DNA of 43,039 bases, taken from Clostridia bacterium. Its GTDB lineage: Bacteria > Bacillota > Clostridia > Christensenellales > RUG350. The DNA lies in the NCBI GenBank assembly GCA_045538365.1, contig JAZSRG010000105.1, positions 1-43,039 on the forward strand. The letters are read 5' to 3'. Shown here piece after piece: positions 8,973 to 30,178 of the stretch. Position 1 is the first letter of the stretch. Every line of letters starts with the position of its first letter. The position numbers and the translations under genes are program-made. The notes beneath the pieces were generated by a model. It was not told where the DNA came from. It searched no databases and saw only the letters and a list, made by a program, of their open reading frames with translations.

Positions 8973-9079
8973 ATTTTTAAGCAAAAAAGTAAAAATCGTC
9001 CTACTAATTTTCTAAAAAGTGCTTGCGAGAATTTGCGCTATATTATATCATAGTGTTATCACATAAGGAGATTATGATT

Positions 9080-10423: not shown

Positions 10424-10486
10424 ACGGCATATAAGCGTCGAAATACTTCAAAATCAAAAACTCTCTCGTGCGGTTACGTACCTTTT

Positions 10487-10614: not shown

Positions 10615-10769
10615 TATTTGTAATTTTAAATTTTTCACAAAATGTGTAATTATTTCATATATAGATATGGTGATAATCATAAAATAAGGCTATGTCACAA
10701 TAAATGGTTGAGTTTTGCCCGTAGAAATCAATCAGATATTGCGATATAACCATAAAAAAAGGAGGAATT

Positions 10770-12044: not shown

Positions 12045-12050
12045 ACTAAT

Positions 12051-12083
12051 AAAAAAAGGACACGACCGTGTCCTTTTTCTTTT
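12051..12083. terminator. bidirectional hairpin terminator between convergent genes
   Basis: aaaaaaaGGACAcgaccgTGTCCtttttctttttt. Confidence 0.7.
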
Positions 12084-13496: not shown

Positions 13497-13511
13497 AGTT
13501 TTCTCCTGTAA

Positions 13512-13670
13512 TTTTCAAAATAAAAAGCGCCCCTTTTCGGAGCGCAGAATAACTAAATAGTTTCTCCGTCCGTTTGCCTGAGAGATTCGGCTTGCGCCTT
13601 GCACCTTCGGCACTCGATTGGTTACGAGTTCTCCAGAGTTCCCTTCCCCGTCGGTTTTATCCTACGGGTT
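13512..13670 (-). promoter_or_regulatory. glycine riboswitch (single canonical aptamer plus 5' partial/ghost stem) with intrinsic terminator expression platform
   Basis: The minus-strand RNA reads ...CCCGUAGGAUAAAACCGACGGGGAAGGGAACUCUGGAGAACUCG..CGAGUGCCGAAGGUGCAAGGCGCAAGCCGAAUCUCUCAGGCAAACGGACGGAGAAAC. This matches the glycine aptamer consensus (CUCUGGAGA / CCGAAGG.GCAA / AAUCUCUCAGGCAAA.GGAC). It is followed by GCGCUCCgaaaaGGGGCGCUUUUUAUUUU and then an AGGAG RBS. Confidence 0.8.
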
Positions 13671-13692
13671 CAACAGGAATTTATTGAATAAT

Positions 13693-13721
13693 ATACTACA
13701 TAAAAATTGCGATTTTGTCAA
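13693..13721 (-). promoter_or_regulatory. sigma-A type promoter for the riboswitch/AGCS transcript
   Basis: Minus strand: TTGACA, 17-nt spacer, TAGTAT, immediately upstream of the riboswitch. Confidence 0.6.
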
Positions 13722-13726
13722 TAAAA

Positions 13727-13758
13727 AAACGCATAAAAAAGCGTTTTTATGCGTTTTC
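13727..13758 (-). terminator. hairpin terminator at the 3' end of the MATE gene
   Basis: ACGCATAAAAA-agcg-TTTTTATGCGT palindrome flanked by A/T runs. It overlaps the last codons of the MATE CDS. Confidence 0.6.
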
Positions 13759-15189: not shown

Positions 15190-15314
15190 ATTATCACCGC
15201 AAAAGAGTAGTAACTAAATTGTACACCTTGCTACACTAAAAAGCAAGGGAAAATGAGATAAAAGCGAACAATATTTTAAAGTATTTAAATAGTTTTATCG
15301 TATATTAAAAAAGA

Positions 15315-15917
15315 TTATTCATTTTCTATTTCGTAATATTTCCACGTCATAGAAGAAATGGATTTCCATCTCTCTTTATCTTTTTGGTTCTCGCTCCAAA
15401 TTAAAAATTCGAAAAACCTATGTTCTTCGTTTGCAAAGCGAGATATGTCTTCAACTGTGCAATTATATAGTCCTACGCAACCAAAACCGCCGAATATAGC
15501 AAATTTTACCGTTTTGTGGACGTCTAATATCGGATTGATATTCTGTATTTTTGCATTTTTCAAAAAGAACATACTGCACTCTTTTAGATTATACAAAAAA
15601 TCAAGATTTTCTATCTTTTCGCCCTTAAAAATATTTAAATCTCTAATATGCGGAAAGCGTGATAAAAATTCATAATTTGATAGTTGTGCCCAAATATAAA
15701 AACCGACAACTTTAAAACTTGATATTTTTTCCATTATGGCGGAGTCTTCCAAATCTTCGGGTGTGAGATATACGTCTGGAAGTTTCATGTTGAACGCATG
15801 TGAAGTTTGCACCCAAGGAACGCTAATGAAATTATTAGGTGTTCCGTCCTGCGTTATTCCTATACTTAAACACTCTTTTTCTCTATTCAATAGTTTTTCT
15901 TTTTCTGAATCTAACAT
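15315..15917 (-). CDS. hypothetical cytoplasmic protein with leucine-rich-repeat-like segment
   Basis: 200 aa, AGGTG RBS, 12 nt downstream of the ispDF stop. 'LSNYEFLSRFPHIRDLNIFKGEKIENLDFLYNLKECSMFFLKNAKIQNINPIL' has LRR periodicity. No family recognised. Visibly more AT-rich than its neighbours. Confidence 0.55.
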   Translation of the reverse strand: MLDSEKEKLLNREKECLSIGITQDGTPNNFISVPWVQTSHAFNMKLPDVYLTPEDLEDSAIMEKISSFKVVGFYIWAQLSNYEFLSRFPHIRDLNIFKGEKIENLDFLYNLKECSMFFLKNAKIQNINPILDVHKTVKFAIFGGFGCVGLYNCTVEDISRFANEEHRFFEFLIWSENQKDKERWKSISSMTWKYYEIENE

Positions 15918-15929
15918 TTTGTCACCTAT

Positions 15930-17045
15930 TTAAACTTTTACCGAAACTATTGCTTCGGTGGCTATACCTTCTTCCCGTCCCGTAAAGCCAAGTTTTTCCG
16001 TCGTCGTTGCGGTCAATGAAACGTTGTTTTCGGGAATACCTAAAAGAAAAGCAATATTTTTAGAAATAACGTCTATATATGGGGAAAGTTTAGGTTTTTC
16101 CGCAACTATCACGATAGACGCGTTTATAATTTCCGCTTGTTTTTCTTCAAGCATTTTTAAAACTCGTTTGAGTAATTCCACGCTTGAAATATCTTTAAAC
16201 TCGGGAGTGCAAGGGAAGTGGAAACCTATATCCCTTAAGTGAACGGCGGAAAGAAGGGCGTCCATTAAGGCGTGCAAAACTACGTCCGCGTCGGAGTGTC
16301 CGAGCAAACCTTTGTCGTGCGGTACGGTTACGCCCCCAAGAATAAGTTGCCTGCCTTCTTCAAAGCGGTGGGCGTCAAAGCCTACCCCTGCGTGTATTTC
16401 TTTGGGTTTGTCTTCGGGAGTGGTGAGTTTTATATTGTTTTTGTCCCCTCTAACAACGAAAACTTTACCGATTTTTTCATAAACCGACGAATCGTCCGTG
16501 TAAATTTCGTTAGGGGATATAATAGAATATGCGTATTTTAGTTTTTCCGTGACAAATCCTTGCGGTGTTTGAACTAAAGCAAGGGAGTCGCGGGATAACG
16601 TTTTTGTAATATAGCCGTTCTCGCTCTCTTTGACAGTGTCTTGCGGGGGAATAACGGGTATTACCGCTCCGTGGAGTTTAACGCCGTCTATTACTCTGTC
16701 AATTACTTCGTGAGTTACAAAAGGTCTTGCGCCGTCGTGGATAAGAACGATATCAGATTGAGTTATATTTAGCGCGTTTTGGACGGAGTCCGTGCGCGTT
16801 TCCCCACCTTTTACGAGCAAAACGTTTTTGTTCGTTGAAAACTCGGATAAAATTTTTTGAATATTTTCTCTATCACAGTCCTTGCAAGGGATAATAATTT
16901 CGTCAATAGCCGAGTGGGTGAGAAATTTTTCTATCGTGTGAGAAAGTATGCTCTTTCCGTCGGATAAGGGCAAGAAAAGTTTATTTTTATTGGTTTTCAT
17001 TCTCGTGCCACTTCCGGCAGATGGGATAATAACCGTTATTTTCAT
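15930..17045 (-). CDS. ispDF: bifunctional 2-C-methyl-D-erythritol 4-phosphate cytidylyltransferase / 2-C-methyl-D-erythritol 2,4-cyclodiphosphate synthase
   Basis: N-terminal half has 'IIPSAGSGTRM' and 'VLIHDGARPF' (IspD). C-terminal half has 'GVGFDAHRF...GHSDADV..HA..DA' (IspF). GGAG lies 7 nt before the ATG at 17045. Confidence 0.9.
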   Translation of the reverse strand: MKITVIIPSAGSGTRMKTNKNKLFLPLSDGKSILSHTIEKFLTHSAIDEIIIPCKDCDRENIQKILSEFSTNKNVLLVKGGETRTDSVQNALNITQSDIVLIHDGARPFVTHEVIDRVIDGVKLHGAVIPVIPPQDTVKESENGYITKTLSRDSLALVQTPQGFVTEKLKYAYSIISPNEIYTDDSSVYEKIGKVFVVRGDKNNIKLTTPEDKPKEIHAGVGFDAHRFEEGRQLILGGVTVPHDKGLLGHSDADVVLHALMDALLSAVHLRDIGFHFPCTPEFKDISSVELLKRVLKMLEEKQAEIINASIVIVAEKPKLSPYIDVISKNIAFLLGIPENNVSLTATTTEKLGFTGREEGIATEAIVSVKV

Positions 17046-17136
17046 ATCGCGCTCCACAAAAATTTTATATAATTTTATCATATCTTTTATAAAAAGGCAA
17101 TAAGGCTCGTAAAATTTGCAAAAATGCGTTTTAGTG

Positions 17137-17165
17137 TTGACTTTTTTTAAATTTAAGGTTATGAT
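17137..17165 (+). promoter_or_regulatory. sigma-A type promoter upstream of rhaA
   Basis: TTGACT, 17-nt spacer, TATGAT. Confidence 0.55.
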
Positions 17166-17207
17166 ATATAGGTAAATACCGTGTAAACGGAAAAAAGGAG
17201 AATTAAA

Positions 17208-18455
17208 ATGAGCGAACGTTATGAATTAGCAAAAAAACTTTATGCTGAATACGGTGTTGATACCGACGCGGCTATAGACAAACTTAAAAATATTCCTATT
17301 TCCTTGCATTGTTGGCAAGGCGACGACGTATTGGGCTTTGAAGGAGCAGAGTCCCTTAGCGGTGGTATCCAAACCACGGGTAATTATCCCGGTCGCGCAA
17401 CCAACCCCGAAGAACTTATGGCTGATATGGAAAAAGTTATGTCGCTTTGCCCCGGCGCAAAGAAACTTAACGTTCACGCATGTTACGCTATATTTGACGG
17501 CGAATTCGTTGACCGTGATAAGTTAGAACCCAAACACTTCCAAAAATGGATTGATTTTGCAAAGGAAAGAGGTATGGGTATTGATTTTAACCCCACTTTC
17601 TTTGCTCACCCCAAGGCTAACGGCTTGACTTTGTCCAGCCCCGACGAAGATATTCGTAAATTCTGGATAGAACACGGTAAGGCTTGTGTTAGAATTTCTC
17701 AATACATGGCTGAACAAACGGGTATTCCTTGCGTTATGAATATTTGGACGGGTGACGGATTTAAGGATATCCCTGCCGACAGAATGGGACCGAGAATGAG
17801 ATACAAAGAGGCGATTGAGGAGATTTTATCCGAACCTTTTGACAAAAATCTCGTTAAACCTTGCGTTGAGTCCAAAGTTTTCGGTATCGGCGTTGAGTCT
17901 TTCACCACGGGTTCTGCGGAATTTACCTTGTCGTTTGCTGCAACTCACGACGGTTGCTTGCCTTTGATGGATAACGGACACTATCATCCGATGGAATACG
18001 TTTCAGATAAAATTCCCGCTTTGCTTTGTTTCTTCCCCGAAATCGCTCTTCACATCACGAGAGGTGTTAGATGGGACTCCGACCACGTTTTAATCTTTGA
18101 CGACGAAACCAAAGAAATGGCTAAAGAAATCGTTCGTTGCAACGCGCTTGACAGAGTTTATATGGCTCTCGACTATTTTGATGCAAGCATTAACCGTATC
18201 GCTGCTTGGGCAGTTGGCTTCCGTTCTTGGCAAAAAGCGTTGCTTTCCGCGCTTTGCACGCCTAACGCTATGCTTAAAGGTTTACAAGACGACGGAAAAC
18301 TTACCAAACTCTTGGTAGCGCAAGAAGAAATGAAGACCTTGCCTTTTGGCGCGGTTTGGGAAGAGTACTGCGCTCGTTGCGGAGTAGCAGGGGATATGAG
18401 TTGGTTTGACGAGATTGAAAAGTACGAAAAAGAAGTGCTTTCCAAGAGAGCGTAA
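17208..18455 (+). CDS. rhaA: L-rhamnose isomerase
   Basis: 415 aa. 'IPISLHCWQGDDV.GFE', 'NPTFFAHP' and 'DNGHYHP' are characteristic RhaA motifs. AAGGAG RBS. Confidence 0.9.
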   Translation: MSERYELAKKLYAEYGVDTDAAIDKLKNIPISLHCWQGDDVLGFEGAESLSGGIQTTGNYPGRATNPEELMADMEKVMSLCPGAKKLNVHACYAIFDGEFVDRDKLEPKHFQKWIDFAKERGMGIDFNPTFFAHPKANGLTLSSPDEDIRKFWIEHGKACVRISQYMAEQTGIPCVMNIWTGDGFKDIPADRMGPRMRYKEAIEEILSEPFDKNLVKPCVESKVFGIGVESFTTGSAEFTLSFAATHDGCLPLMDNGHYHPMEYVSDKIPALLCFFPEIALHITRGVRWDSDHVLIFDDETKEMAKEIVRCNALDRVYMALDYFDASINRIAAWAVGFRSWQKALLSALCTPNAMLKGLQDDGKLTKLLVAQEEMKTLPFGAVWEEYCARCGVAGDMSWFDEIEKYEKEVLSKRA

Positions 18456-18477
18456 CCAAAATTTTGCAAATGAAATT

Positions 18478-18512
18478 ATTGCACGGCTGTCCGCCGTGCA
18501 ATTTTTATTTTT
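18478..18512 (+). terminator. Rho-independent terminator after rhaA
   Basis: 10-bp stem ATTGCACGGC-tgtcc-GCCGTGCAAT followed by TTTTTATTTTTT. Confidence 0.85.
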
Positions 18513-18559
18513 TACCAAAAAAATTTTTTAAAAAACTTAAAAAAATTTTTAAAAAATTA

Positions 18560-18588
18560 TTGAATTTTACGCGTGCGCGTGTTATTAT
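18560..18588 (+). promoter_or_regulatory. promoter-like element P1 with GC-rich palindromic spacer (no adjacent ORF)
   Basis: TTGAAT, then the 17-nt spacer TTTACGCGTGCGCGTGT, then TATTAT, preceded by phased A/T tracts. The spacer core CGCGTGCGCGT is identical to, and in register with, the promoter at 40876-40904. Confidence 0.5.
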
Positions 18589-18845
18589 ATATAATATAAT
18601 AAATATATAAGAAAATATACTATTATAAAACGTGTTTTTCGGGCGTTGAATTTTGGTTTTTTAAAAAAGTTCGTAAGTTCTTTTTCCCAAAACCTTGTCA
18701 AGACGTATAAACGTCGGCATAAAATGATTTGGGGATTAAAACTTGAAACTGAAAAAACCAAACGCTAAACTTTGAAACGTGCGGAGTATGCACGGTTTTT
18801 TGGAAACCGCTCGTAAAAATTTTTAAAATATATATTGTTTGGTAG

Positions 18846-18874
18846 TTGACAAGCCGAATTATATATGTTAAAAT
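18846..18874 (+). promoter_or_regulatory. sigma-A type promoter for the 1051-aa surface protein gene
   Basis: TTGACA, 17-nt spacer, TAAAAT. This implies a 5' UTR of about 190 nt. Confidence 0.6.
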
Positions 18875-19068
18875 AAACCAGTGTAATAGGCAATTTATGC
18901 CCTGACAGGGATTTTTCCCGAAAAAAAGTACCAAAAAAGGAGAAGATTTGTGTATGGTTAGAGGAAAGAGAATATTGAAAGAGTGAAAATTGTCTACAAA
19001 AGACTTGTGTAGTAAAACAAAAGAAAAACAAAAAACAAAAACTTAGATTTTATTAAAGGAGAAATAAA

Positions 19069-22000
19069 ATGACAACGACAAAGAAAAGTTTACTTGCTAT
19101 CTTAATGTTAGTTCTCGTAAGCGTATTCTGCTTCTCTGCAGTTGCAGGCGCTGAAATCGCTACCGTTGCTGATTTCGAAGAGAAAATGAACATCTTGATA
19201 GATAAGAATGTACAACCTGGAGAATTGTTCGACGACTATAAAGACGTTCAAGTTCTTCGTGAAGCAACCAACATTTATACGGATTTGACTCTTAGCGAGA
19301 AAAATTCTATCAATGCTACTATTGCTGCTAAATACGAGTCATATCGTCAAGTATCAAGCGAAGCATTCAAAGTAGATGCTTACATAACCAGTACTTTGTA
19401 CGATAAACTCAACAACATCAAAGGCAGAACCGTTTTGCTTTCTGATGAAGATGATATCGCTGCTATCAAAACGACTATCCTCGGATTAGACGCTAAAGCA
19501 AAAGCATGGGTAGAACAACTCCCTGGTTATGCTAATATCGCACTTGCTGAAGCAAGAATTGCTGAACTCAAAATCGCACTTGCTAACGCAATCGCTAAAA
19601 TTAACGATATCGATTACTTCACCATCGGCGGAAGAGACATTATCGCTCTTGCAAGTGAAGACAGCATCGACGAAGCAACTGATGCACTCGATGCTATCTT
19701 TGGCGCTGATTTCGATGAATTCAGAGCAACCGAAGGCGTATTCGTAACCAACCTTGCTAAATACGACGCTGCTGTAGAAGCACTCGCTGCTCAATACGCT
19801 AAAGCACAAGCAGTTATCGACGCTGCTGAAGCAGTAGAAGCAGAAATCGTTATCGAAAACGGTGAAAGAATCGTTTACTGGACTCTCAGAGACAAAATCG
19901 CTGACGTTGTATCTATGTACGACGATTTGGCAGACGACGCTGATTTCGTAGTTCCTTACAACGATTTGCAAGCAGTTGTTGACGCTGACGGCACTCTCGA
20001 CGAAATGCTCGCAGAACTCGCTGTTATCCAAGCAGAAATCGACGCAGTTGAAGTTCTTATCAACGCTATCGGTACTGTAGAATACACCACCGGTGACGAA
20101 GACGCTATCGCTGCTGCAAGAGAAGCATTCAACGCACTTGATGCTGACCTCGTTGCTGCTGATATCGCTGCTCAAGCGGCTAACGAAGCTACCAGCGTAG
20201 AAAACTACGACGCACTCGTTAAAGCAGAAGAAAAGATGGCTTTCCTCCAAGCAAGATATACCGACCTTATTGCTAAAATTGATGCAATGGCACTTGCTTT
20301 CCAAGAACACGGAGACATCTTTGATGCATATCCTGCACTTCAAGCACTTTACTTGATCGTTGACGACGAAAACCCTGAAATGATTACTAAGTTGGCTGGT
20401 GAAGTTTACGACGACGAATACGAAGTTGAACACTACAACAAAGCAATCAACAACTATAAAGAAGCATACGACTTCTATGCAGCACGTGCATTGGAAGTAT
20501 TGGCTAACGTAACTTCAGTTATTAAAGCAATCGACGAATTGCCTAACCCTGTATTACTTAACGTTGAACATCAACAAAAACTTGCTCTTGCTAACAGCCT
20601 TTACGACGCATTGAGCGAAGAAGACAAGAAATTCGTAGAAAACTACGAAAAATTAGTTCTCGCTAACGAACAATTCGATGCAGCAATGGCTATCGCTGAC
20701 AACTGGGTTGCTAAAGTAAATGCAATCGGTGTTGTTGAAGCAACCGACGATATTATTGCTAAAATTGAAGATGCTGTATCCGCTTGGGATAAACTTGATG
20801 CTGCTGCTCAAGCAGTTGTAGCAAGTCTTTCTAAGACCGACTCTATCTGGGGTGAATATGCAGTAGCATACGAAACCTACATCAACAAAACCACTCGTCT
20901 TGCTGCTCTCTTGAACGCAATCGAAGCAGTTGCTGCTGATATGGATACCATCGTAACCACTAACATTCCTGAAAGTGAAGTTGCTGCTTTCGTAGCAAAG
21001 ATCGCTGGTATCAAAGCAGATTACACTGCACTTCCTGCAACTAGCAAGACCTACTTGCAAGAAAACTACACCGCTGAATATCAAAAATACTTGGCTGGTG
21101 TACGTAACAGCGAAAAATACTTAGTAGAACAAGCAATCGCTGCAATTCCTGATGACGTTACTATCGCTGACAGATTCTTGGTTTACAACGCAGACGAACT
21201 TGCTGACGCTTATATCGTTTCATACGCTAACGCTACCAACCCTGCATACGAAGCAACCGAATATATCCGTAACTACGACAAACTCGTAGCAGCAAAAGCA
21301 GATTTGAAAGAACTTACTGATGCGCTCGACGTTTGGGCAAACGCAGTTAAAGCACTCGTTGGCGGAAACTACGACAATATCGATAAGATCGTTGCAGATA
21401 AAGATGCATATCCTATCGACCTTGACAAAGCAACTGAACTTTATCAAGATTATCTCAACTTTGATGCAGACGAACAAAGTTACTTTGTAGACGACGGTGT
21501 TGACGACTTCGCTAAACTTAACGAAATCGGAAACAACGCAGTAACGCAAGCATACAACGTAGAGGCTAATATGGCTGCATTGAACGCAATCGCACTTGAT
21601 GCATTGACCAGCGTAGATCTCGATGCTATCGAAGCAACCGAAGCAGCATACAACGATTTGCATGCAACTCAAAAAGAACTCGTAAGTGACGTAATCAAAG
21701 CAGAATTCGACGAAAGAGTTGAAAAACTTGCTATGATCAACGCAATCGAATCAGTTATCGATGGTCTTGCAAACTCCAAAGACATCACCTCTGATACTCC
21801 TATCTTGATTGAACTCTTGAAGGCTGTATACGGTGACTTGGACAGCAACGACAAGAAACTTATCGACAACTGGGGCAAAATTGCTGATATCGAAAAAGCA
21901 TACGAAGCAGCAAAAGCAAACGGAACTGTTGTAAGCGTAACTGGTCTTAAGGCTTCTGTAGACGCTCTCAAAGTTGCTCTTGATGCTAAAGATGCTGAAC

Positions 22001-22224
22001 TCGCAGCAGCAATCAAAGCAGCAGAAGACAAGATTGCTATTCTTGATGCACAACTCGGTCTTACCGAAGATGCACTCGAAGAAGTAGAAAAAGATCTTGC
22101 ATCTGCAACTGAAAAAGTAGAAACGTTGCAAGGCACCTTGACCGCTATCATCATTATCTTCTCCATCTTGATAGCAGCATGTGTAGTTGCAATTGTAATA
22201 CTTCTCCACAAAAAGAAGGCGTAA
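19069..22224 (+). CDS. secreted, C-terminally membrane-anchored, acidic Ala-rich helical-repeat surface protein
   Basis: Strong RBS (AAAGGAG). Signal peptide 'KKSLLAILMLVLVSVFCFSAVAGA/E'. About 950 aa rich in A/D/E/I/L/N/Y with recurring 'L(D/S)..(D/E).K..V.NY(D/E)(K/A)LV.A' modules. Terminal coiled-coil-like segment, then TM helix 'LTAIIIIFSILIAACVVAIVILL' plus 'HKKKA'. Markedly biased codon usage (GCT/GCA, GAA, GAC, GTT, ATC). Confidence 0.85.
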   Translation: MTTTKKSLLAILMLVLVSVFCFSAVAGAEIATVADFEEKMNILIDKNVQPGELFDDYKDVQVLREATNIYTDLTLSEKNSINATIAAKYESYRQVSSEAFKVDAYITSTLYDKLNNIKGRTVLLSDEDDIAAIKTTILGLDAKAKAWVEQLPGYANIALAEARIAELKIALANAIAKINDIDYFTIGGRDIIALASEDSIDEATDALDAIFGADFDEFRATEGVFVTNLAKYDAAVEALAAQYAKAQAVIDAAEAVEAEIVIENGERIVYWTLRDKIADVVSMYDDLADDADFVVPYNDLQAVVDADGTLDEMLAELAVIQAEIDAVEVLINAIGTVEYTTGDEDAIAAAREAFNALDADLVAADIAAQAANEATSVENYDALVKAEEKMAFLQARYTDLIAKIDAMALAFQEHGDIFDAYPALQALYLIVDDENPEMITKLAGEVYDDEYEVEHYNKAINNYKEAYDFYAARALEVLANVTSVIKAIDELPNPVLLNVEHQQKLALANSLYDALSEEDKKFVENYEKLVLANEQFDAAMAIADNWVAKVNAIGVVEATDDIIAKIEDAVSAWDKLDAAAQAVVASLSKTDSIWGEYAVAYETYINKTTRLAALLNAIEAVAADMDTIVTTNIPESEVAAFVAKIAGIKADYTALPATSKTYLQENYTAEYQKYLAGVRNSEKYLVEQAIAAIPDDVTIADRFLVYNADELADAYIVSYANATNPAYEATEYIRNYDKLVAAKADLKELTDALDVWANAVKALVGGNYDNIDKIVADKDAYPIDLDKATELYQDYLNFDADEQSYFVDDGVDDFAKLNEIGNNAVTQAYNVEANMAALNAIALDALTSVDLDAIEATEAAYNDLHATQKELVSDVIKAEFDERVEKLAMINAIESVIDGLANSKDITSDTPILIELLKAVYGDLDSNDKKLIDNWGKIADIEKAYEAAKANGTVVSVTGLKASVDALKVALDAKDAELAAAIKAAEDKIAILDAQLGLTEDALEEVEKDLASATEKVETLQGTLTAIIIIFSILIAACVVAIVILLHKKKA

Positions 22225-22237
22225 TCGTTGCGATTAG

Positions 22238-22271
22238 AAAAAAGAACTCACGAAAGTGAGTTCTTTTTTTT
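22238..22271 (+). terminator. Rho-independent terminator after the surface protein gene
   Basis: aaaaaaGAACTCACgaaaGTGAGTTCtttttttt (GAAA tetraloop, T-run). Confidence 0.85.
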
Positions 22272-22275
22272 AATT

Positions 22276-22460
22276 GACACGAATGAGCGAAGCGAATTTA
22301 GTCAAATTAAAAAAACGACCAAAGGGAGTTTTAACGAAAAGAATGAGTGAAACGAATTTTAAAATAAGATTAAAAGACCGAAAGGGCTTTAATCGACACG
22401 AATGAGCGAAGCGAATTTTAAAACAAGATTAGAAATAACTCACGAAAGTGAGTTATTTCT
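22276..22460. repeat. three tandem ~60-nt direct repeats, each ending in a progressively degraded GAAA-loop hairpin
   Basis: GAATGAGCGAAGCGAATTT at 22281 and 22400, GAATGAGTGAAACGAATTT at 22341 (periods 60 and 59). Unit 3 ends with AGAAATAACTCACgaaaGTGAGTTATTTCT, which shares its core with the terminator at 22238-22271. Confidence 0.8.
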
Positions 22461-22536
22461 AATTATATGGTGGGTGGGATAGGTAAATAAAAATTACAAA
22501 AATTCCCATAAATACTAATTATTTTTAAAACTATTA

Positions 22537-22565
22537 TTGACAAGATTGACGATTTATTGTATTAT
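22537..22565 (+). promoter_or_regulatory. sigma-A type promoter for lipoprotein gene 1
   Basis: TTGACA, 17-nt spacer, TATTAT. Confidence 0.6.
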
Positions 22566-22619
22566 ATTATTTGGTGATAGTCGCACCGTGATTATGATTA
22601 TTTTTTATAGGGGTAATAT

Positions 22620-25600
22620 ATGAGAAAGATAAGGAAAATTGCTTTACTTGCCGTGGCTTTTGTTATGGTTTTCTCTTGCGTGCTTTTGGGCGCGTGTGGG
22701 GAATCTTCTAACGTTGAGTTAAAGACGGTTGAAGTAAAAGTAGAAGAAGCAACCTTTAATGGTGAACGTGTATTAGTTAACGTTGCGTATGGTACTGCGC
22801 CTACTAATTCTGACAGTTACGGATTTAGAGTAGAAGGCAAGGACAACTTTAAAAAGGACTACGTTGCTACCAATATGGACAAAGACGGCAAGTTCTCCGC
22901 TCAACTTTTGGATTTGCCTAACGGCGAGTTTGAAGTTCGCGCTTTCGTGGGAACGACTACGCCTGATTATGGCAAAAAATTGGCGTTTACGGGAGTTGCA
23001 AACGACCTTGAAAAATTAAATGCGGGTATTGAGCAGATTGACGGCAGTTTCGTTAGCGCGCAAAAGTTGCCATTAGGCAAAACTTGCACGATTAAACCTA
23101 TGTTTGTACCTGAAAACTATAAATATAGAACTGTTTCATTTGAGTCTTCCGACACGAGTATTTTGACCGTTACGAAAGACGGCGTTGTTACCGCTGTTGG
23201 AAAGGGTAGCGCAACCGTAACCGTTAAATCAAAAGACGGAAAAACCGCAATATGTTCTTTCCAAGTAGAAGAAGAAGTTTTCGTAGCGCTTGACTACGCG
23301 AGCGTAATTCTCTTTAAGGGCGAACAAATGAAACTTACTGCAACCGTAACTCCCGATAGCGTTACGAATAAAGCCGTTATTTGGAAATCTCGTGACGAAG
23401 ATATCGCAATCGTTGACCAAAACGGTTACGTTACGGCTAAAAACGAAGGCGAAGTATTTATCGAAGCAAGATCGGTTGCAAACGAGAACGTTTTGAAAAC
23501 TTGTAAAGTAACCGTTGCTGGAGAATATAAGGTTATACTTAGTGAAACCTTACTTATCTTAGACCAAGGCGGAACTTATACTCTTACTGCAGAAATCGTA
23601 CCGAGCATTGAAGGGGAAACTATCGTTTGGGCTACTTCAAACCCGAGTGTAGTAACCGTTGATAACGGCGTAATCAAAGCCGTTGGAAAGGGTACGGCGA
23701 CAATAACCGCAAGTATGCGTGGCGTTTCGTCCACTTGTGAAGTTTCCGTAAAAGACGATATCGAAGTTAAGTTCATCTTAAACGGTGACGTTTACGCTAT
23801 TCGTTACACGGGCGCAAGCCAAGGCTATAAGATTAGTATGCCCAAAAGACCGCAAGACGCAAATAATTCTACTGCGCCGTATTACTTCAAAGGTTGGTAC
23901 TCTTCCAAGTCTTATACCACCGAAGTAACGGAAAATACTACTTTTAATAAAGCAACTACGGTTTACGCTAAACTTGAAAATATCTTTACTTACACTGTTA
24001 AGAGTGGAAAAGTAAGTATTACGGGCTTTGCTACAGGACACGAGATAGAAGATATCATTATTCCTTCAAAAATCGACGGATATCAAGTTTATGCAATTTC
24101 AAGCGGAGCATTTAAAGGCTCTAACGTAGAAACTTTAACTATCGAGCCGGGACTTGAGAAAATTTACGACGATGCGTTTAGAGATTGCGTGTCACTTGAC
24201 ACCGTAACCTTTAAATCAGGTAGCACGGTTTCCTACATTGGCGATTCCGTATTCCGTGACTGTGTGGCATTGACCTCAATTTCTTTGCCCACTTCCCTTA
24301 ACCAAACGGGTGAACTTATGTTCTACGGATGTAAGCAACTCCCTTCAAAATACAGCGAATTGTATCAACTTAACCTTGAGTCCAAAGAATATTTCGCGCC
24401 TAAATACACCTATGAATTCTTAGGTCAAGACGTTATGCCCATAGGTGGATACATTGAGCCTTCCGTTGGTTACTTTGCTTCAGGTGTAACCGTTGACAAG
24501 GTTATGAAAGACTACGTAGCGTCAGGCACAAATATAATGGTAGGTATTCAACAAGCGCGTTGGGGAACTACGGGCGAACACTACAAACAAATGTACGAGT
24601 CCCTTGAAAAATACGGCGGTATGATGATAGAGAGATATCAAGTACCAAACGCAGAATATCTCTATGCGTCTTACGCAGGAAACCACGCAGAAGACGAACC
24701 GGGTGTAGTTAAATGGCGTGATGATCTTTACTACAACAGTCCGTGGGGTGCTGCTATTCAAGTAGGAAATGAACACAAACAACACGAAAACTGGAAAGCA
24801 AATCATCCGAGAAAGCTTCGTTTCACTAATTTGTTGCCTGTAAACTCCCCTGTAAATGCGTTTGTATTTGGCGCAACTTATTATGGTTACAATAATGCTA
24901 CTAACCACGACAAATTTGCTGAATACACCGCAAAATACGCAAATTACGACGAGTATTATAAGACCTACATTGAAGAAATGAAGCCCGAAGTATTCTGCTA
25001 CGACTTCTATCCCTTGTGGGCAAACGGCGGAAAAGGATATCTCCCGTACCCCGAACTTAACGGACAACATTTCGAGCAACTTGCAGTAACCCGTTATTAC
25101 GCAGAAGACTATAACGACAAAGTAAACGGTGGATACGTGCCTTTCTGGAACTTTATCCAAATTGCTCAATGGGGCGCGCAAGGCGAAGGCAGGGGCGGAT
25201 CACGCGCTGCAACTTTACGCGAACTCAATTGGCAAACAAACACTGCCTTAGCATACGGCTCTAAAGGATATATTTACTTCGTATTTAACGATTACGGCGA
25301 TATAAGCGGTAACGGAAATCCGTCCGATTACGCAGGAACGACGCCTATCAATATAGACGGCACGAAGAATACCCCCGTATATAACAACGTTAAGAAATTA
25401 AATACTCAATCACAAGCCATGGCTAAATGGTTGCTTAACGCAAACGTTGACCATATCTATGTATATGGCGCTAACCCCAACGGGGAAGCAACTCCGACGT
25501 CAGTTCTTACCCCGCGTAATAATTCAATCAAGTGGGCGTTTAAAGATTCAGTTGGTGTAAACCATATCGTAAGCCACATGACGTATTACGCAAACAACAA

Positions 25601-25820
25601 CGAGTATGACGAAGGTGTAACGGCGGACGTTCGCGAACTCTACTTCGTATGTAACAACAACACCTTGCAATCTACGGGTGACGGCACGATTACCATTAAC
25701 TTCAAGAGTGAAGTTTCGGGTAGTTACATCTACAACGGCGTAGAGAAGCCCTTTAGCGGAACGAGTTTGACTATAAGCACCGTTGCAGGCGAAGGATTTG
25801 CTATTCTTCTTGATAAATAA
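22620..25820 (+). CDS. surface lipoprotein: N-terminal beta domain, 3x Big_2, Listeria-Bacteroides repeat, BspA-type LRR, uncharacterised ~480-aa C-terminal domain
   Basis: Lipobox 'LLGAC'. Big_2-like 'ILTVTKDGVVTAVGKGSATVTV', 'IAIVDQNGYVTAKNEGEVFI' and 'VVTVDNGVIKAVGKGTATITA'. Flg_new-like 'VKFILNGD...YYFKGWY...TVYAKL'. LRR_5-like 'IPSKIDGYQVYAISSGAFKGS...IYDDAFRDC.SL..V'. C-terminal domain shared with the next gene. Confidence 0.85.
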   Translation: MRKIRKIALLAVAFVMVFSCVLLGACGESSNVELKTVEVKVEEATFNGERVLVNVAYGTAPTNSDSYGFRVEGKDNFKKDYVATNMDKDGKFSAQLLDLPNGEFEVRAFVGTTTPDYGKKLAFTGVANDLEKLNAGIEQIDGSFVSAQKLPLGKTCTIKPMFVPENYKYRTVSFESSDTSILTVTKDGVVTAVGKGSATVTVKSKDGKTAICSFQVEEEVFVALDYASVILFKGEQMKLTATVTPDSVTNKAVIWKSRDEDIAIVDQNGYVTAKNEGEVFIEARSVANENVLKTCKVTVAGEYKVILSETLLILDQGGTYTLTAEIVPSIEGETIVWATSNPSVVTVDNGVIKAVGKGTATITASMRGVSSTCEVSVKDDIEVKFILNGDVYAIRYTGASQGYKISMPKRPQDANNSTAPYYFKGWYSSKSYTTEVTENTTFNKATTVYAKLENIFTYTVKSGKVSITGFATGHEIEDIIIPSKIDGYQVYAISSGAFKGSNVETLTIEPGLEKIYDDAFRDCVSLDTVTFKSGSTVSYIGDSVFRDCVALTSISLPTSLNQTGELMFYGCKQLPSKYSELYQLNLESKEYFAPKYTYEFLGQDVMPIGGYIEPSVGYFASGVTVDKVMKDYVASGTNIMVGIQQARWGTTGEHYKQMYESLEKYGGMMIERYQVPNAEYLYASYAGNHAEDEPGVVKWRDDLYYNSPWGAAIQVGNEHKQHENWKANHPRKLRFTNLLPVNSPVNAFVFGATYYGYNNATNHDKFAEYTAKYANYDEYYKTYIEEMKPEVFCYDFYPLWANGGKGYLPYPELNGQHFEQLAVTRYYAEDYNDKVNGGYVPFWNFIQIAQWGAQGEGRGGSRAATLRELNWQTNTALAYGSKGYIYFVFNDYGDISGNGNPSDYAGTTPINIDGTKNTPVYNNVKKLNTQSQAMAKWLLNANVDHIYVYGANPNGEATPTSVLTPRNNSIKWAFKDSVGVNHIVSHMTYYANNNEYDEGVTADVRELYFVCNNNTLQSTGDGTITINFKSEVSGSYIYNGVEKPFSGTSLTISTVAGEGFAILLDK

Positions 25821-25830
25821 ACTCAAACGA

Positions 25831-25863
25831 GAGAGCGTTTCGACTTGAAACGTTCTCTTTTTA
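25831..25863 (+). terminator. Rho-independent terminator after lipoprotein gene 1
   Basis: GAGAGCGTTTC-gactt-GAAACGTTCTC (one G-U pair) followed by TTTTT. Confidence 0.8.
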
Positions 25864-25894
25864 TGCAAAAAAACCGTATTAAAATCAAGTCGAG

Positions 25895-25923
25895 TTGACA
25901 ATAGCGCAGAATATAGTTATACT
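25895..25923 (+). promoter_or_regulatory. sigma-A type promoter for lipoprotein gene 2
   Basis: TTGACA, 17-nt spacer, TATACT. Confidence 0.6.
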
Positions 25924-25951
25924 ATATATATAAAGATTTTAGGAAAACAAT

Positions 25952-28144
25952 ATGAGAAAGATTAGGAAATTATTGTTTATAACTATTTGTTTAGCCCTTT
26001 GTTTATTTGTGGTTACGGCTTGTAATCCGAGCATTGAAGAGCCAAGCGAAACGCCGAGCGCGGTGGAAGTTAAATTTATGTTAAACGGAGAACTTTACGC
26101 TATCCGTTATCCTAACGCAAATTTTGGTTACACCGTAGATATTCCCGAGATTGACGACACGAATTTACCTTACAGTTTTTTAGGTTGGTACGACTCGGAA
26201 ACTTATTTTAACGAAGTAACGGACAAAACTCAGTTTATGGAGAGCGCCACCGTTTACGGTAGAACGGATTCTATATTTAAAATGGCGGTAAAAGACGGCA
26301 AAGTCACCATTACGGGGTTAAACCACGGGGTGGAAAGAAAAAACCTCGTAATTCCTGATAAAATCAACGGTTTTGAAGTTGATGCCATTGGTTATAACGC
26401 TTTTGAGAATAGCCAAATCGAGTCCGTGCATTTTGAAAGCGGAATCGTAAAAATTCACGACGAGGCGTTTAAAAATTCAAAGTCCCTTGACACCGTAACT
26501 TTTGGAGAAAATTCCAAAATGAGTTATATAGGGGATTCCGTTTTCCGCGGTTGTGAAGCCCTTGCGAATATAACTTTGCCCGACACCGTGGAGAGCGTGG
26601 GCGAACTTACGTTTTACGGTTGCTCTCAAGTCAGTTATGGGGAACTATATTCCAAAAACCCGCAAGTAAAAGAGTATTATTCGCCTAAATACACTTACGA
26701 ATTTTTGGGCGAAGACGTTATGCCCATAGGCGGATACATTGAGCCGTCCGTCGGTTACTTTGCGGATAACGTTACCCTTGAGAGAGTTATGAAAGAGTAC
26801 GTAGAGTCGGGTTGTAATATAGTTATCGGTATTGGTCAACTTCGTTACGGCACGACGGCGGAGCATTACAAACAAATGTTCGAGTATCTTTCAAGATACG
26901 GCGGTATGATGTTCAAGCAAGATTCTATCGGAAACTTTGACTCTTTTGATGCGGAAGCAACGGAGAGCGTAAAAAGAGCGGTGGAAGAGTACGCCAAAAA
27001 ATATCCGTCCTTTGCGGGATATCATATAGAAGACGAGCCCGGTGTTTCTTCTTGGGTACCCGGACTTGGAGAGTATTCAAGATACACGGGACAAGACGGA
27101 GTGTTTATCCCGTCCAGCATGCAATACAATAACGCCGTTTGGAAAAAGAATTTAGGCAGAAAACTTTATTTCGTTAACCTTTTGCCTGTAAACTCGCCTA
27201 AAAAAGCCTTTGCGTTCGGTGCGGATAACTATAGTTATGGCGAAAACACTAATTTCTTGTGGGGCGAGTATGAAAAATACGCAAACTACGACTATTACTA
27301 TAAGTCCTATATAGAAAACGTTAAACCCGAAGTGTTCTCTTACGACTTTTATCCTTTGTGGGCGAACGGAACGAGTAGTCCCTACCTTCCTTACCCCGAA
27401 CTTAATAATCGCCATTTCGAGCAACTCTATATGACTCGTTACTACGCAGAAGATTATAGTTTGAAAGTAAACGGACAGTACACGCCTTTCTGGAACTTTA
27501 TCCAAATAGCAAAGTGGTCGTCTTCACGCGCTGCCACGGAGAGTGAAGTTTTGTGGCAAATAAATACGGCTTTTGCGTACGGTTCTAAAGGATATCAATA
27601 TTTCGTATTTAACGATTACGGCGATATATACGGTAACGGCGCTGTGTCCGATTACGCAGGAACTACTCCTGTAAATATTGACGGCACGATAAACGAGCCT
27701 GTGTATAGGAGCGTACAAAAGGTAAACGGCTATTCGCAAGCCATGGCAAAGTGGCTACTTAACGCAAACGTGGACCACTTGTATCTTTGTGGTGAAAACC
27801 CAAATAACGAAGACACTCCGAGTCCTATGTTCGTACCCCGTGATTCGTCAATTGATTGGGCGTTTAAGAGTTCTGAAGGTGTAAACCATATCGTAAGCCA
27901 CATGACGTATTACGCAAACAATAACCAATATGACAAAAACACGGAAGGGGACACACGTCAACTTTATTTCGTATGTAACAACAACACGCAGTCAATTTAC
28001 GGGGACGGAGAGATTACTATAAACTTTGACCGTGAAGTTACGGGACGATATATCTTGCGTGGAGAAGAAAAGGTTTTTGCAGGAAATTCTTTGACCGTTC
28101 AAACTTACGCAGGCGAAGGATTTGCAATATTACTCAATAAATAA
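25952..28144 (+). CDS. surface lipoprotein paralog: Listeria-Bacteroides repeat, BspA-type LRR, same uncharacterised C-terminal domain (no Big_2 region)
   Basis: Same 'MRKIRK' start, lipobox 'VVTAC'. 'VKFMLNGELYAIRY...FLGWYDS', 'IPDKINGFEVDAIGYNAFENS...IHDEAFKNSKSL'. The C-terminal ~490 aa are collinear with gene 1 ('PKYTYEFLG.DVMPIGGYIEPSVGYFA', 'H.EDEPG', 'YDFYPLWANG', 'GVNHIVSHMTYYANNN', 'AGEGFAILL.K'). Confidence 0.85.
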   Translation: MRKIRKLLFITICLALCLFVVTACNPSIEEPSETPSAVEVKFMLNGELYAIRYPNANFGYTVDIPEIDDTNLPYSFLGWYDSETYFNEVTDKTQFMESATVYGRTDSIFKMAVKDGKVTITGLNHGVERKNLVIPDKINGFEVDAIGYNAFENSQIESVHFESGIVKIHDEAFKNSKSLDTVTFGENSKMSYIGDSVFRGCEALANITLPDTVESVGELTFYGCSQVSYGELYSKNPQVKEYYSPKYTYEFLGEDVMPIGGYIEPSVGYFADNVTLERVMKEYVESGCNIVIGIGQLRYGTTAEHYKQMFEYLSRYGGMMFKQDSIGNFDSFDAEATESVKRAVEEYAKKYPSFAGYHIEDEPGVSSWVPGLGEYSRYTGQDGVFIPSSMQYNNAVWKKNLGRKLYFVNLLPVNSPKKAFAFGADNYSYGENTNFLWGEYEKYANYDYYYKSYIENVKPEVFSYDFYPLWANGTSSPYLPYPELNNRHFEQLYMTRYYAEDYSLKVNGQYTPFWNFIQIAKWSSSRAATESEVLWQINTAFAYGSKGYQYFVFNDYGDIYGNGAVSDYAGTTPVNIDGTINEPVYRSVQKVNGYSQAMAKWLLNANVDHLYLCGENPNNEDTPSPMFVPRDSSIDWAFKSSEGVNHIVSHMTYYANNNQYDKNTEGDTRQLYFVCNNNTQSIYGDGEITINFDREVTGRYILRGEEKVFAGNSLTVQTYAGEGFAILLNK

Positions 28145-28189
28145 TATATAAAAAAGGACGAAATTCCTATACGTTGGGGAAATAATTTG

Positions 28190-29515
28190 ATGATAAAAAC
28201 GAGAAAAAGATTATCTTCATTTCAAATAATACTTATAGGTTTTGCTTTGGTGATTTTGGTCGGAGCAATACTTTTAAGTTTGCCTTTTTCATCCGCGAAA
28301 GGAGAATATACGCCGTTTGTTGACTCTTTATTTACATCCACTTCGGCTGTGTGCGTGACGGGGCTTATCGTTTTTGATACGGCTACGCATTGGTCGGTGT
28401 TCGGTCAAGTGGTTATACTTTTGCTTATTCAAATAGGCGGAATGGGAGTTGTGACGGTGGCAATGAGTTTTGCTATGCTTGCAGGCAAAAAAGTCGGACT
28501 CACGTCAAGAGGACTTATGCAAGAAGCAATTTCTGCGCCGAACGTTGGTGGAATACTAAAACTCACGGGTTTTATTATAAAAGGCGTATTCTTGATTGAA
28601 CTTTTGGGCGCGCTTATTATGATGCCGTCTTTTATATCGGATTTTGGCGCGGAAGGAATTTGGATGGCTATATTCCATTCCATTTCGGCTTTTTGTAACG
28701 CAGGTTTTGATATTATGGGCAAAACGGGAGAGTTTTCCTCTTTGACCGCGTATTCCGCGCACCCCGTTATAAATATTACTATTATGCTCTTGATTATAAT
28801 CGGCGGTATTGGATTTTTGACTTGGGACGACGTTAGACGTAATAAATTCCGTTTTAGAAAATATAGATTGCAAAGCAAAATCATATTTATCGTGACGGGT
28901 TTGCTCATTTTGTTACCGGCAATTTATATGTTTTTCTTTGAGTTTCAATCCTTGCCCTTGGGAGAAAGAATTTTAGTATCTTTATTCCAGGCGGTGACGC
29001 CGAGAACGGCAGGATTTAATACTATTGATTATACGACCGTTAGCCAAGTTGGGCTTTTACTAACTATCGTACTTATGCTAATAGGCGGTTCTCCCGGCTC
29101 GACTGCGGGCGGTATGAAAACAACCACTTTCGCCGTTATTTTTTCAACAATGTTTTCAGTTTTTAGAAGACGAAACAACACTAAACTCTTAAATAGGCGA
29201 GTGGAGGACGGTATCGTTAAAAACGCGTTTTCGATATTTATGCTTTATATTACGTTGTTTGTTTTGTCTGCGTCTATAATTAGCGTAGTCGAAGAACTCC
29301 CGTTATTAGATTGTATGTTTGAAACGGCTTCCGCCGTTGGAACGGTCGGTCTTTCTTTAGGACTAACGCCAACTTTGGGTATCCTTTCAAAAATTATTTT
29401 AATGTTTTTAATGTTTTTTGGACGCGTCGGCGGTTTGACTTTGATATACGCGGCGTTTAGCAGAAAAAATACTAATATTTCAAAACTTCCTATGGAAAAC
29501 GTTACCGTAGGTTAA
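28190..29515 (+). CDS. ktrB: TrkH/KtrB family potassium uptake membrane subunit
   Basis: Polytopic, about 440 aa, with repeated selectivity-filter-like 'TGL', 'NAGF', 'RTAGFNT' and 'VGLSLG' segments typical of KtrB/TrkH. Confidence 0.85.
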   Translation: MIKTRKRLSSFQIILIGFALVILVGAILLSLPFSSAKGEYTPFVDSLFTSTSAVCVTGLIVFDTATHWSVFGQVVILLLIQIGGMGVVTVAMSFAMLAGKKVGLTSRGLMQEAISAPNVGGILKLTGFIIKGVFLIELLGALIMMPSFISDFGAEGIWMAIFHSISAFCNAGFDIMGKTGEFSSLTAYSAHPVINITIMLLIIIGGIGFLTWDDVRRNKFRFRKYRLQSKIIFIVTGLLILLPAIYMFFFEFQSLPLGERILVSLFQAVTPRTAGFNTIDYTTVSQVGLLLTIVLMLIGGSPGSTAGGMKTTTFAVIFSTMFSVFRRRNNTKLLNRRVEDGIVKNAFSIFMLYITLFVLSASIISVVEELPLLDCMFETASAVGTVGLSLGLTPTLGILSKIILMFLMFFGRVGGLTLIYAAFSRKNTNISKLPMENVTVG

Positions 29516-29524
29516 GGAGTAATT

Positions 29525-30178
29525 ATGAAAAACAAATCTATCTTACTTGTAGGTGTTGGAAGACTTGGCAGATATATTGCCGAGAAACTTAACGAACTTG
29601 GTCACGAGGTTATGGCAATAGACCGTAACGAATCACGTATTAACGACGTTATGGATATCGTTACCAACGCACAAATCGGGGATAGCACAAATGAAACCTT
29701 TTTAAAATCGTTAGGCGTGGAAAATTATGACGTTTGTATAGTAACGATAGGCGGAGATTTTCAAGCATCCCTTGAAACTACTAATTTGCTTAAAGAACTC
29801 GGCGCAAAGATGGTCGTATCCCGCGCGGAGCGTGACGGACAAGCAAAATTTTTGAAGAGAAACGGCGCGGATGAGATTATTTATCCGGAAAGACAACTCG
29901 CTTCTTGGGCAGCAATAAGATTTAGCGCCGATCACGTTTTGGACTATATTCAAATTGACGACGAACACGCAATTTTTGAAGTGGACGTACCCGAAGATTG
30001 GGTTGGAAAGAGTATTGCGGATATTGATATTCGTAAAAAATTCAATATCAATATTCTTGCTATCAAACAAAATGGAAAAATTAGCGCGTCTGTAATGCCG
30101 AGTGTGGTTTTGAGCGACGAAATTACTTTATTGGTATTGGGCGAATATAAAGCGTTGAAGAAATGTTTTAATATATAA
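29525..30178 (+). CDS. ktrA: TrkA/KtrA family potassium uptake regulatory subunit (RCK domains)
   Basis: 'ILLVGVGRLGRYIAEKLNELGHEVMAID' Rossmann RCK_N plus C-terminal RCK_C ('F.VDVPE.W.GKSI.D.D.R.KF.INILAI'). AAGGAG RBS. Confidence 0.85.
   Translation: MKNKSILLVGVGRLGRYIAEKLNELGHEVMAIDRNESRINDVMDIVTNAQIGDSTNETFLKSLGVENYDVCIVTIGGDFQASLETTNLLKELGAKMVVSRAERDGQAKFLKRNGADEIIYPERQLASWAAIRFSADHVLDYIQIDDEHAIFEVDVPEDWVGKSIADIDIRKKFNINILAIKQNGKISASVMPSVVLSDEITLLVLGEYKALKKCFNI

Follow-up and report, generated by a model that had tools for sequence, protein, structure and literature searches.

Glycosidase-like lipoproteins beside an independent helical membrane protein: a probable synteny breakpoint in a 9-kb surface block of a Clostridia genome

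Three consecutive genes for surface proteins, g1, g2 and g3, lie on the + strand of a contig of a Clostridia bacterium of the order Christensenellales (assembly GCA_045538365.1, contig JAZSRG010000105.1, positions 1 to 43,039; the whole stretch of 43,039 nucleotides is referred to below as the window), and they raise the question of whether neighboring surface proteins constitute one module. A sequence-only reading of the window had proposed that they do, with a tail-anchored acidic helical-repeat protein (g1, 1051 aa) acting together with two paralogous lipoproteins (g2, 1066 aa; g3, 730 aa). The genes are found exactly where that reading placed them, between rhaA (17208-18455; Pfam RhaA, E 2e-172) upstream and the TrkH/TrkA-type genes ktrB and ktrA (28187-30178) downstream; its claims that each product is a predicted exported protein with a membrane anchor (by a signal peptide and transmembrane helix in g1 and by lipoboxes in g2 and g3), and that no part of the window is more lineage-specific than this block, hold as well. 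The claim of joint action does not: in a tblastn search of 98 fetched loci, g1 was present in 10 and the C-terminal domain common to g2 and g3 in 88, with both in none (within ~10 kb), and the genes have separate promoters and, in the case of g1 and g2, separate terminators. The explanation considered probable is instead that the 9-kb block consists of two unrelated surface functions juxtaposed at a synteny breakpoint, g2 and g3 being multi-modular glycan-cleaving lipoproteins and g1 an independent rod.

Both lipoproteins start with MRKIRK, a basic n-region, followed by a hydrophobic core and, as read from the sequence, a lipobox that ends in Cys26 in g2 (...VLLGAC26) and in Cys24 in g3 (...FVVTAC24), and the two are 57% identical over 726 aa; the lipoprotein character and the paralogy claimed earlier are both upheld. 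The same applies to the adhesin-type modules, as Pfam recognizes Big_2 (101 bits), the BspA-type leucine-rich repeat (LRR) family LRR_5 (63.6 bits) and Flg_new (27.3 bits) in g2, and LRR_5 (67.5 bits) in g3, where Flg_new at 22.4 bits falls under the cut-off of 27. No SLH, LPXTG, CWB2 or choline-binding match was obtained with Pfam in the three proteins, also in agreement with the earlier account. In the proposed mechanism, g2 and g3 would be carbohydrate-active enzymes of multi-modular build, anchored as lipoproteins and duplicated in tandem long ago: the lipobox Cys would tether each protein to the membrane on its outer side, Big_2, Flg_new and the BspA-type LRR may serve as spacers or binding modules, and the C-terminal GH42/GH35-like domain would cut an extracellular glycan of host or dietary origin.

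The C-terminal domain, ~490 aa in length, has no Pfam, NCBIfam or PDB-sequence match of its own, and to that extent the earlier statement that it could not be assigned stands; structure and profiles, however, place it in clan GH-A of the glycoside hydrolases (GH). The AlphaFold2 (AF2) model of the g3 domain, made from a 26-sequence alignment, has a predicted local distance difference test score (pLDDT) of 90.8 and a predicted TM-score (pTM) of 0.93, and displays eight alternating strand-helix units followed by a beta-sandwich, which is the TIM-barrel fold. Foldseek against the PDB returned 318 matches at E<=1e-3, the best being to PslG (GH39), a GH164 beta-mannosidase, GH42, GH2, GH29 fucosidases and GH5; E values for PslG, GH164 and GH42 range from 1e-8 to 1e-11, with PslG at 8e-11. 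As modeled, the domain belongs by fold to the glycosidase TIM barrels of clan GH-A, without a close solved relative. An enzyme-like lipoprotein domain had been anticipated, and it takes the form of a GH42/GH35-like barrel model beside adhesin-type modules; in this respect the domains of the block map in part to known families.

At the sequence level, a broader family profile matched the GH35 enzyme IaSGT of Ignavibacterium (PDB 7VKX/7X87) at E 3.5e-5 and the GH42 enzyme of Rahnella sp. R3 (PDB 5E9A) at E 0.013. Distant family members match Pfam Glyco_hydro_42 weakly, one of them (P0047) with 26 bits vs a cut-off of 21, and a Cohnella member is labeled "beta-galactosidase" and "GH42 N-terminal domain-containing" in RefSeq/UniRef. 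The features in common with GH42 and GH35 are the (beta/alpha)8 barrel, the strand-4 Glu, S-x-D-x-Y-P after strand 6, and P-F-x-x-hydrophobic in strand 7. In comparison to GH42, g2 and g3 have Asp-Glu-Pro for Asn-Glu on strand 4 and Ile-Gln for Met-Glu on strand 7; they have one C-terminal beta-sandwich, whereas GH42 has trimerisation and C-terminal domains, and their barrel is joined to Big_2, Flg_new and LRR_5 modules in a lipoprotein-anchored chain. The family itself is large: a profile search covering 1.84 billion representatives, clustered at 50% identity, gave 5,989 clusters at E<=1e-3 and 1,218 at E<=1e-30, and a scan of GTDB species genomes located the domain at 79 loci, in Christensenellales-like Clostridia, Ca. 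Scatosoma, Bacteroidales, Paenibacillus, Cohnella, Nonomuraea and others. A literature search yielded no pertinent description of a GH42-like new family with an Asp-Glu ... Gln signature. g2 and g3 add two members to this large, uncurated GH42/GH35-like family and probably degrade glycans at the cell surface.

The signature emerges from a residue census of 184 aligned domains, 172-174 of which cover each site (domain positions 125/126/173/229/231/282 are Asp361/Glu362/Asn409/Asp465/Tyr467/Gln518 of g3). Asp125-Glu126 is present in all 172 domains that cover it; Glu126 is located at the end of strand 118-125, strand 4 of the barrel (nt 27032-27037 for the pair in g3), where the acid/base Glu is expected, and is preceded by an invariant Asp and not by Asn. 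Conservation reaches 99% at Asn173 and is complete at Asp229 and Tyr231. Position 282, at the strand-7 end (nt 27503-27505 in g3), is Gln in 150 of 173 domains (87%), Glu in 8 (5%) and another residue in 15, while the preceding position 281 is hydrophobic, Ile or Val in 136 of 173. A hidden Markov model (HMM) alignment to 5E9A places the GH42 nucleophile (LME) on Ile281, with Gln282 next to it, and also pairs the SxDxYP motif that follows strand 6 and the P-F with which strand 7 opens; a strand-7 nucleophile Glu is not a feature of the g2/g3 domain family. As the face of strand 7 that is conserved consists of W278, F280 and Q282, the nucleophile is more likely to be replaced structurally by Gln282 than by Ile281. 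Because Asp replaces Asn on strand 4 and Gln replaces the nucleophile Glu on strand 7, the family probably departs from the canonical retaining mechanism with two Glu residues.

Other glycosidases offer an analogy for such chemistry. GH20 and GH123 are substrate-assisted N-acetylhexosaminidases with a (beta/alpha)8 fold, a strand-4 Asp-Glu pair and no enzyme nucleophile on strand 7. The g2/g3 domain resembles them in its Asp-Glu dyad at the end of strand 4 and in having no strand-7 carboxylate, a likeness that serves as a lead only; GH20 and GH123 are absent among the 50 Foldseek matches listed for the g3 domain, and the sequence comparisons did not link the domain to them either. That the domain cleaves an N-acetylhexosaminide with assistance from the substrate is the best guess, but a rather doubtful one. 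Comparable reserve attaches to a wider proposal, in which the domain family would be a very large uncurated enzyme family, frequent in gut Clostridia, Bacteroidales, Paenibacillus and Nonomuraea, of GH42/GH35-like ancestry with an altered mechanism (substrate-assisted, inverting or phosphorolytic), in effect a new GH family, and in which g1, separately, would be a hyper-variable rod under a new conserved element of the type formed by a leader and an upstream open reading frame (uORF).

The surroundings of family members in other genomes bear on their function. A recurrent operon in human-gut and other Clostridia encodes a GH106 enzyme, AraC, a large surface protein, a solute-binding protein, two permeases, a family lipoprotein and Flg_new_2 proteins; in these operons of GH106 and ATP-binding cassette (ABC) importer genes, the family lipoprotein gene overlaps the permease stop codon. 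Such operons also contain one to three unannotated cytoplasmic genes of 430-445 aa, which are paralogs of the domain family (E 1e-56 to 1e-85) and which, except for L013_430, retain the DEP and YDxYP motifs. Elsewhere, AraC and a GH29 fucosidase adjoin the family member P0003, and AraC and GH38 adjoin a pair of lipoproteins described below. An extracellular enzyme combined with an ABC importer and intracellular paralogs is the usual Gram-positive layout for glycan utilisation, and this context supports a carbohydrate role. Family relatives at 34-46% identity have precisely the layout of Gram-positive polysaccharide-utilisation loci (regulator, lipoprotein, ABC importer, one to three cytoplasmic paralogs), whereas the pair in the window is without an adjacent transporter or regulator and is flanked by g1 and ktrBA.

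Several points weigh against an enzymatic role for g2 and g3. The Foldseek TM-scores of the domain are modest (0.46-0.53), its sequence link to GH42/GH35 is weak and spans strands 6-8 only, and g2, g3 and the isolated domain give no match to Pfam PF02449 Glyco_hydro_42. In addition, the canonical nucleophile Glu is missing in ~95% of the family, a pattern also possible for a non-catalytic binding protein. The two lipoproteins might thus be adhesins or glycan binders, with the barrel a pseudo-enzyme that has lost its nucleophile (Ile and then Gln at the aligned site, Glu there in ~5% of members) and that acts with the LRR and Ig-like modules, a view with which the adhesin-type nature of the N-terminal modules agrees. 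It is nevertheless considered unlikely: the acid/base Glu and its preceding Asp are retained in 172/172 domains, and the polar residues that close strands 4-7 do not vary either, as is typical of an active site that has not decayed, which argues for a live one. The placement of members in sugar ABC-importer operons alongside one to three cytoplasmic paralogs also fits sequential glycan breakdown rather than binding.

Less probable still is that g2 and g3 process an exopolysaccharide or capsule of the cell itself, in the manner of PslG, and not external glycans. PslG of Pseudomonas aeruginosa (PDB 5BX9/4ZN2) trims the Psl exopolysaccharide and acts outside the cytoplasm tethered to the membrane; it is the best structural match of the domain, both having a barrel with a C-terminal beta-sandwich, and the surface anchoring of g2 and g3 would agree with such a role. 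The resemblance, however, amounts to a TM-score of ~0.5 and an identity of ~10%, with GH164, GH42, GH29 and GH5 nearly as good. PslG keeps both catalytic Glu and sits in an exopolysaccharide synthesis operon, whereas the gene lists of the examined family neighborhoods hold no glycosyltransferase or polysaccharide-export genes; the neighbors are AraC, GH29, GH38, GH106 and sugar ABC importers. Cleavage of external glycans remains the preferred function for g2 and g3.

The product of g1 is a very acidic protein (isoelectric point (pI) 4.1, net charge about -110, 18% Ala, 18% Asp+Glu) with a Sec-type signal peptide (aa 1-28, cleavage after ...SAVAGA and before E), a helical-bundle ectodomain (~aa 30-1017) and a single hydrophobic transmembrane helix (~aa 1024-1046, nt 22138-22206) that ends in a KKKA tail. 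Export and a single C-terminal transmembrane helix had been claimed for it and are borne out; "tail-anchored" is a misnomer, because the signal peptide is cleavable, and with a signal at the N-terminus in addition to the C-terminal helix g1 is better called a type I membrane protein. The description as an acidic helical-repeat protein is right as to acidity and helices. The AF2 model (pLDDT 78, pTM 0.36) is made up of helices, arranged in about 12 long-short-short helical-bundle units; it also has a single small beta-hairpin, and the transmembrane segment is preceded by a helix of 40 residues. Repeats in the sequence are weak, the best match in an hhalign self-comparison having Prob 88% and E 3e-6; because such self-matches are few as well as weak, the designation of g1 as a regular repeat protein was dropped.

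No relative of g1 was recognized in Pfam at E<=0.01, in NCBIfam or among PDB chain sequences, and seven fragments of the protein searched against Pfam at E<=10 gave coiled-coil noise in the stalk region only, with no FIVAR or GA. Foldseek of the model against the PDB gave no match at E<=1e-3; matches to dynein tail, MUN and cullin (E>=3e-3), which are generic long helical proteins, were judged non-specific. Full-length orthologs number only six among 5.8 billion proteins. Helical stretches of g1 do recur as partial matches, in a profile search, within multidomain extracellular Firmicutes proteins of 800-2000 aa, the other domains of which include dockerin, LRR_5, Flg_new, FIVAR and metallophosphoesterase, and one of which is a Lysinibacillus "cell wall-binding protein"; this recurrence fits a putative spacer or stalk module. 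The ratio of nonsynonymous to synonymous substitution (dN/dS) is 0.24 for g1 vs 0.033 for rhaA, and in comparison to the related locus L094 the encoded proteins are 44% and 92% identical, respectively. By these substitution data g1 is a real gene, with purifying selection present but relaxed.

Among known surface proteins, Ebh and Embp of Staphylococcus are giant helical-bundle rods with FIVAR-GA repeats and a C-terminal membrane anchor. The signal peptide, the serial short helical bundles and the C-terminal transmembrane helix with a basic tail give g1 an Ebh-like appearance, and one of its partial profile matches carries FIVAR; g1 is, however, ten times shorter, lacks Pfam FIVAR and GA, and has no Foldseek match to Ebh or to a bacterial rod, so that it is not placed with them. 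In the preferred explanation g1 would be a monocistronic, fast-diverging, Sec-exported type I membrane protein, the acidic ectodomain of which (~990 aa), with its predicted series of helical bundles carried by a long stalk helix, would project through the wall as a rod or brush, most likely as a structural spacer or coat. Two further points count on the other side: g1 is without a structural or sequence relative of known function, "spacer/coat" being an argument from architecture alone, and at a pTM of 0.36 the extended rod shape is not established by the model.

Transcription signals set the three genes apart from one another. Over the region 18300-28400, scored as matches out of 12 to sigma-70-like -35/-10 elements, promoter-like sites in total are not above chance (24 vs 20.9 expected); only three reach 11/12, all on the + strand and positioned 195, 55 and 29 bp before the start codons of g1, g2 and g3. 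A promoter for each gene, as proposed, is consistent with this result, and of the strong terminators proposed for each gene those of g1 and g2 are found and that of g3 is not. In the 42-bp gap between g3 and ktrB (28145-28186), folding gave no terminator (dG -5.0 kcal/mol, z -0.3) and no promoter-like site was seen; for this reason transcripts that start at the g3 promoter may read through into the ktrBA potassium-uptake genes. With an 11/12 promoter before each gene and strong terminators after g1 and g2, the three do not have the arrangement of a co-transcribed unit. A terminator equivalent to that of g1 is present after g1 in all relatives, spanning five lineages.

At the DNA level, the region just upstream of g1 is better conserved than rhaA: the g1 promoter and ~190-nt leader are 88% identical in nucleotides to L094, and the core (18880-18999) 92%, vs only 83% for the rhaA DNA. 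The leader contains a uORF of 10 codons (18954-18986; MVRGKRILKE) with its own ribosome-binding site, which in relatives reads MVSGKRVLKE or MVEGKRVLKE with synonymous changes among them, and the leader motif was located only upstream of g1 homologs. A search of the g1 upstream region against Rfam returned sub-threshold noise only at E<=10, and the whole window at gathering thresholds gave nothing in the g1-g3 region; exact leader patterns had no match in Joint Genome Institute (JGI) metagenome contigs. As covariation is slight (RNAalifold) and the fold is not unusually stable (minimum free energy (MFE) z -0.9), a stable riboswitch-like fold is unsupported. Expression of g1 is probably controlled via this conserved 5' leader and its uORF. 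The rhaA-g1 spacer as a whole (613 bp, 28% GC) is the AT-rich stretch noted in the sequence-only reading, and within it the AACCTTGTCAAGAC block is a possible operator, i.e. a candidate binding site for a regulator.

The 3' side of g1 has its own conserved layout. The terminator hairpin is duplicated, 192 bp apart, and flanks decayed 59-bp repeats with GAGCGAAGCGAATTT, the decaying tandem repeats described earlier being recovered as 2.7 copies at 22269-22431. In the 39%-identity lineage (L094, 13145-13300), the same duplicated-terminator layout and GAGCGAAGCGAATTT are present 3' of g1, with a different hairpin sequence.

Gene order in relatives also separates g1 from the lipoproteins. In the RGIG2224-like lineage, the closest one in which the context can be read, which comprises the goat-colon metagenome-assembled genome (MAG) GCA_017407285.1 and four metagenome assemblies and in which g1 identity is 39-44%, the order fucosidase, 425-aa gene, Na/Ala symporter, MatE, IspDF, rhaA, g1 is that of the window (9023-22224); after g1, however, come a xanthine/uracil permease and an SSF transporter, with no lipoprotein. 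The genes that come after g1 encode a ferredoxin (Fer4) and an aminotransferase in a 45% relative, and are ylxM-ffh-rpsP in a 28% relative. MAG RGIG2224 also holds a g2-type (1093 aa, 47% identical to full-length g2) and a g3-type (751 aa) lipoprotein as a tandem pair, on a contig other than that of g1, followed by AraC, a GH38 alpha-mannosidase, a 355-aa gene, glyoxalase, ROK, a TRAM methyltransferase and YitT; in the window, ROK and the TRAM methyltransferase come just after ktrBA, downstream of the lipoprotein pair. Because each block is conserved separately in relatives, the window is seen to join two blocks, [...rhaA-g1] and [g2-g3...ROK-TRAM]. The synteny of g1 with the lipoproteins that a common module would call for is absent wherever the context can be read. 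In the closest g1 relative (88% identity) the contigs end inside or just past the g1 terminator, so that a lipoprotein gene may be adjacent there.

It is very improbable that g1, g2 and g3 form one envelope module in which g1, as a fibrillar spacer or coat, organises or presents the lipoproteins: the genes are adjacent on the same strand, all are lineage-restricted, the products are all predicted to be surface-exposed and membrane-anchored, and the order beyond g1 is not readable in the 88% relative, but the promoters are independent, g1 and g2 have terminators of their own, no relative in which the context can be read (three lineages, >6 assemblies) has g1 next to the pair, a g1-like gene lies within ~10 kb in 0/88 domain loci, and MAG RGIG2224 has both, but on different contigs or ~30 kb apart.

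The features of the block, together with the runs of cytoplasmic paralogs found elsewhere, are collected in Table 1. Among side observations, MAG GCA_017407285.1 (L015-L018, L008/L009), the reference genome nearest to the window, carries at least five domain-family copies on four contigs, and one copy, in a 1548-aa Flg_new/Big_2/LRR_5 fusion, is encoded just upstream of the RGIG2224 g2/g3-type pair. The rhaA gene (L-rhamnose isomerase) is solitary between ispDF and g1, without an adjacent rhaB or rhaD, in the window and likewise in relatives. A glycine riboswitch aptamer (Rfam RF00504, 53 bits) is located at 13556-13646 (-), upstream of a Na+/alanine-type symporter gene at 12084-13496 (-).

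Table 1. Coordinates of the g1-g3 block in the window and, in the last row, of domain-family paralogs at other loci.
Feature	Position	Strand	Description
Conserved spacer block	18557..18600	+	Promoter-like TTTACG-18-TATAAT (10/12) overlapping palindrome ACGCGTGCGCGT; nearly invariant in four lineages
Conserved palindromic block	18690..18706	+	AACCTTGTCAAGAC; invariant in four lineages, spacer otherwise divergent
g1 promoter	18846..18874	+	TTGACA-17-(TG)TAAAAT, 11/12; invariant in relatives
g1 5' leader	18881..19068	+	Includes 10-codon uORF and g1 ribosome-binding site
g1	19069..22224	+	1051-aa acidic all-alpha type I membrane protein (predicted)
g1 intrinsic terminator	22236..22275	+	Core AACTCAC-GAAA-GTGAGTT, then T-run; dG -23.9 kcal/mol, z -8.9
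Decayed 59-bp tandem repeat	22269..22464	+	2.7 copies (22269-22431) with 15-mer GAGCGAAGCGAATTT; second terminator hairpin copy at 22427-22464
g2 promoter	22537..22565	+	TTGACA-17-TATTAT, 11/12
g2	22620..25820	+	Lipoprotein; unassigned N-terminal beta region, Big_2 x3, Flg_new aa 383-451, LRR_5 aa 475-574
g2 C-terminal GH42-like barrel and beta-sandwich (predicted)	24354..25817 (aa 579-1066)	+	Without a Pfam match of its own; domain shared with g3
g2 intrinsic terminator	25829..25859	+	dG -18.1 kcal/mol, z -4.0
g3 promoter	25895..25923	+	TTGACA-17-TATACT, 11/12
g3	25952..28144	+	Lipoprotein; Flg_new aa 40-102, LRR_5 aa 145-237, GH42-like domain aa 237-730
g3 C-terminal catalytic-type domain	26660..28141	+	Modeled (beta/alpha)8 barrel, domain residues ~20-370; beta-sandwich ~370-494
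Cytoplasmic paralog runs	L010 11862-13160; L013 12466-16472; L099 9213-13236		Gut Clostridia sugar-ABC operons, near a lipoprotein member and large Flg_new_2 proteins

Overall the locus is an ordinary one, with two modestly interesting loose ends. With the failure of the surface-module reading, no new envelope biology is opened. The first loose end is g1, an orphan, fast-evolving, membrane-anchored protein, predicted to be a helical rod, with an unusually conserved leader; the divergence of the protein beside a well-kept rhaA and a leader at 88-92% DNA identity points to a conserved regulatory element placed before a rapidly diversifying surface protein. The second is the domain family of g2 and g3, ~6,000 clusters that are invisible to Pfam and NCBIfam and loosely auto-labeled "beta-galactosidase", with a consistent Asp-Glu ... 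Gln signature. The substrate of this family, once found, would fill a gap in the carbohydrate-utilisation maps of the gut, and the recognition of a new CAZy family or mechanism might follow from it.

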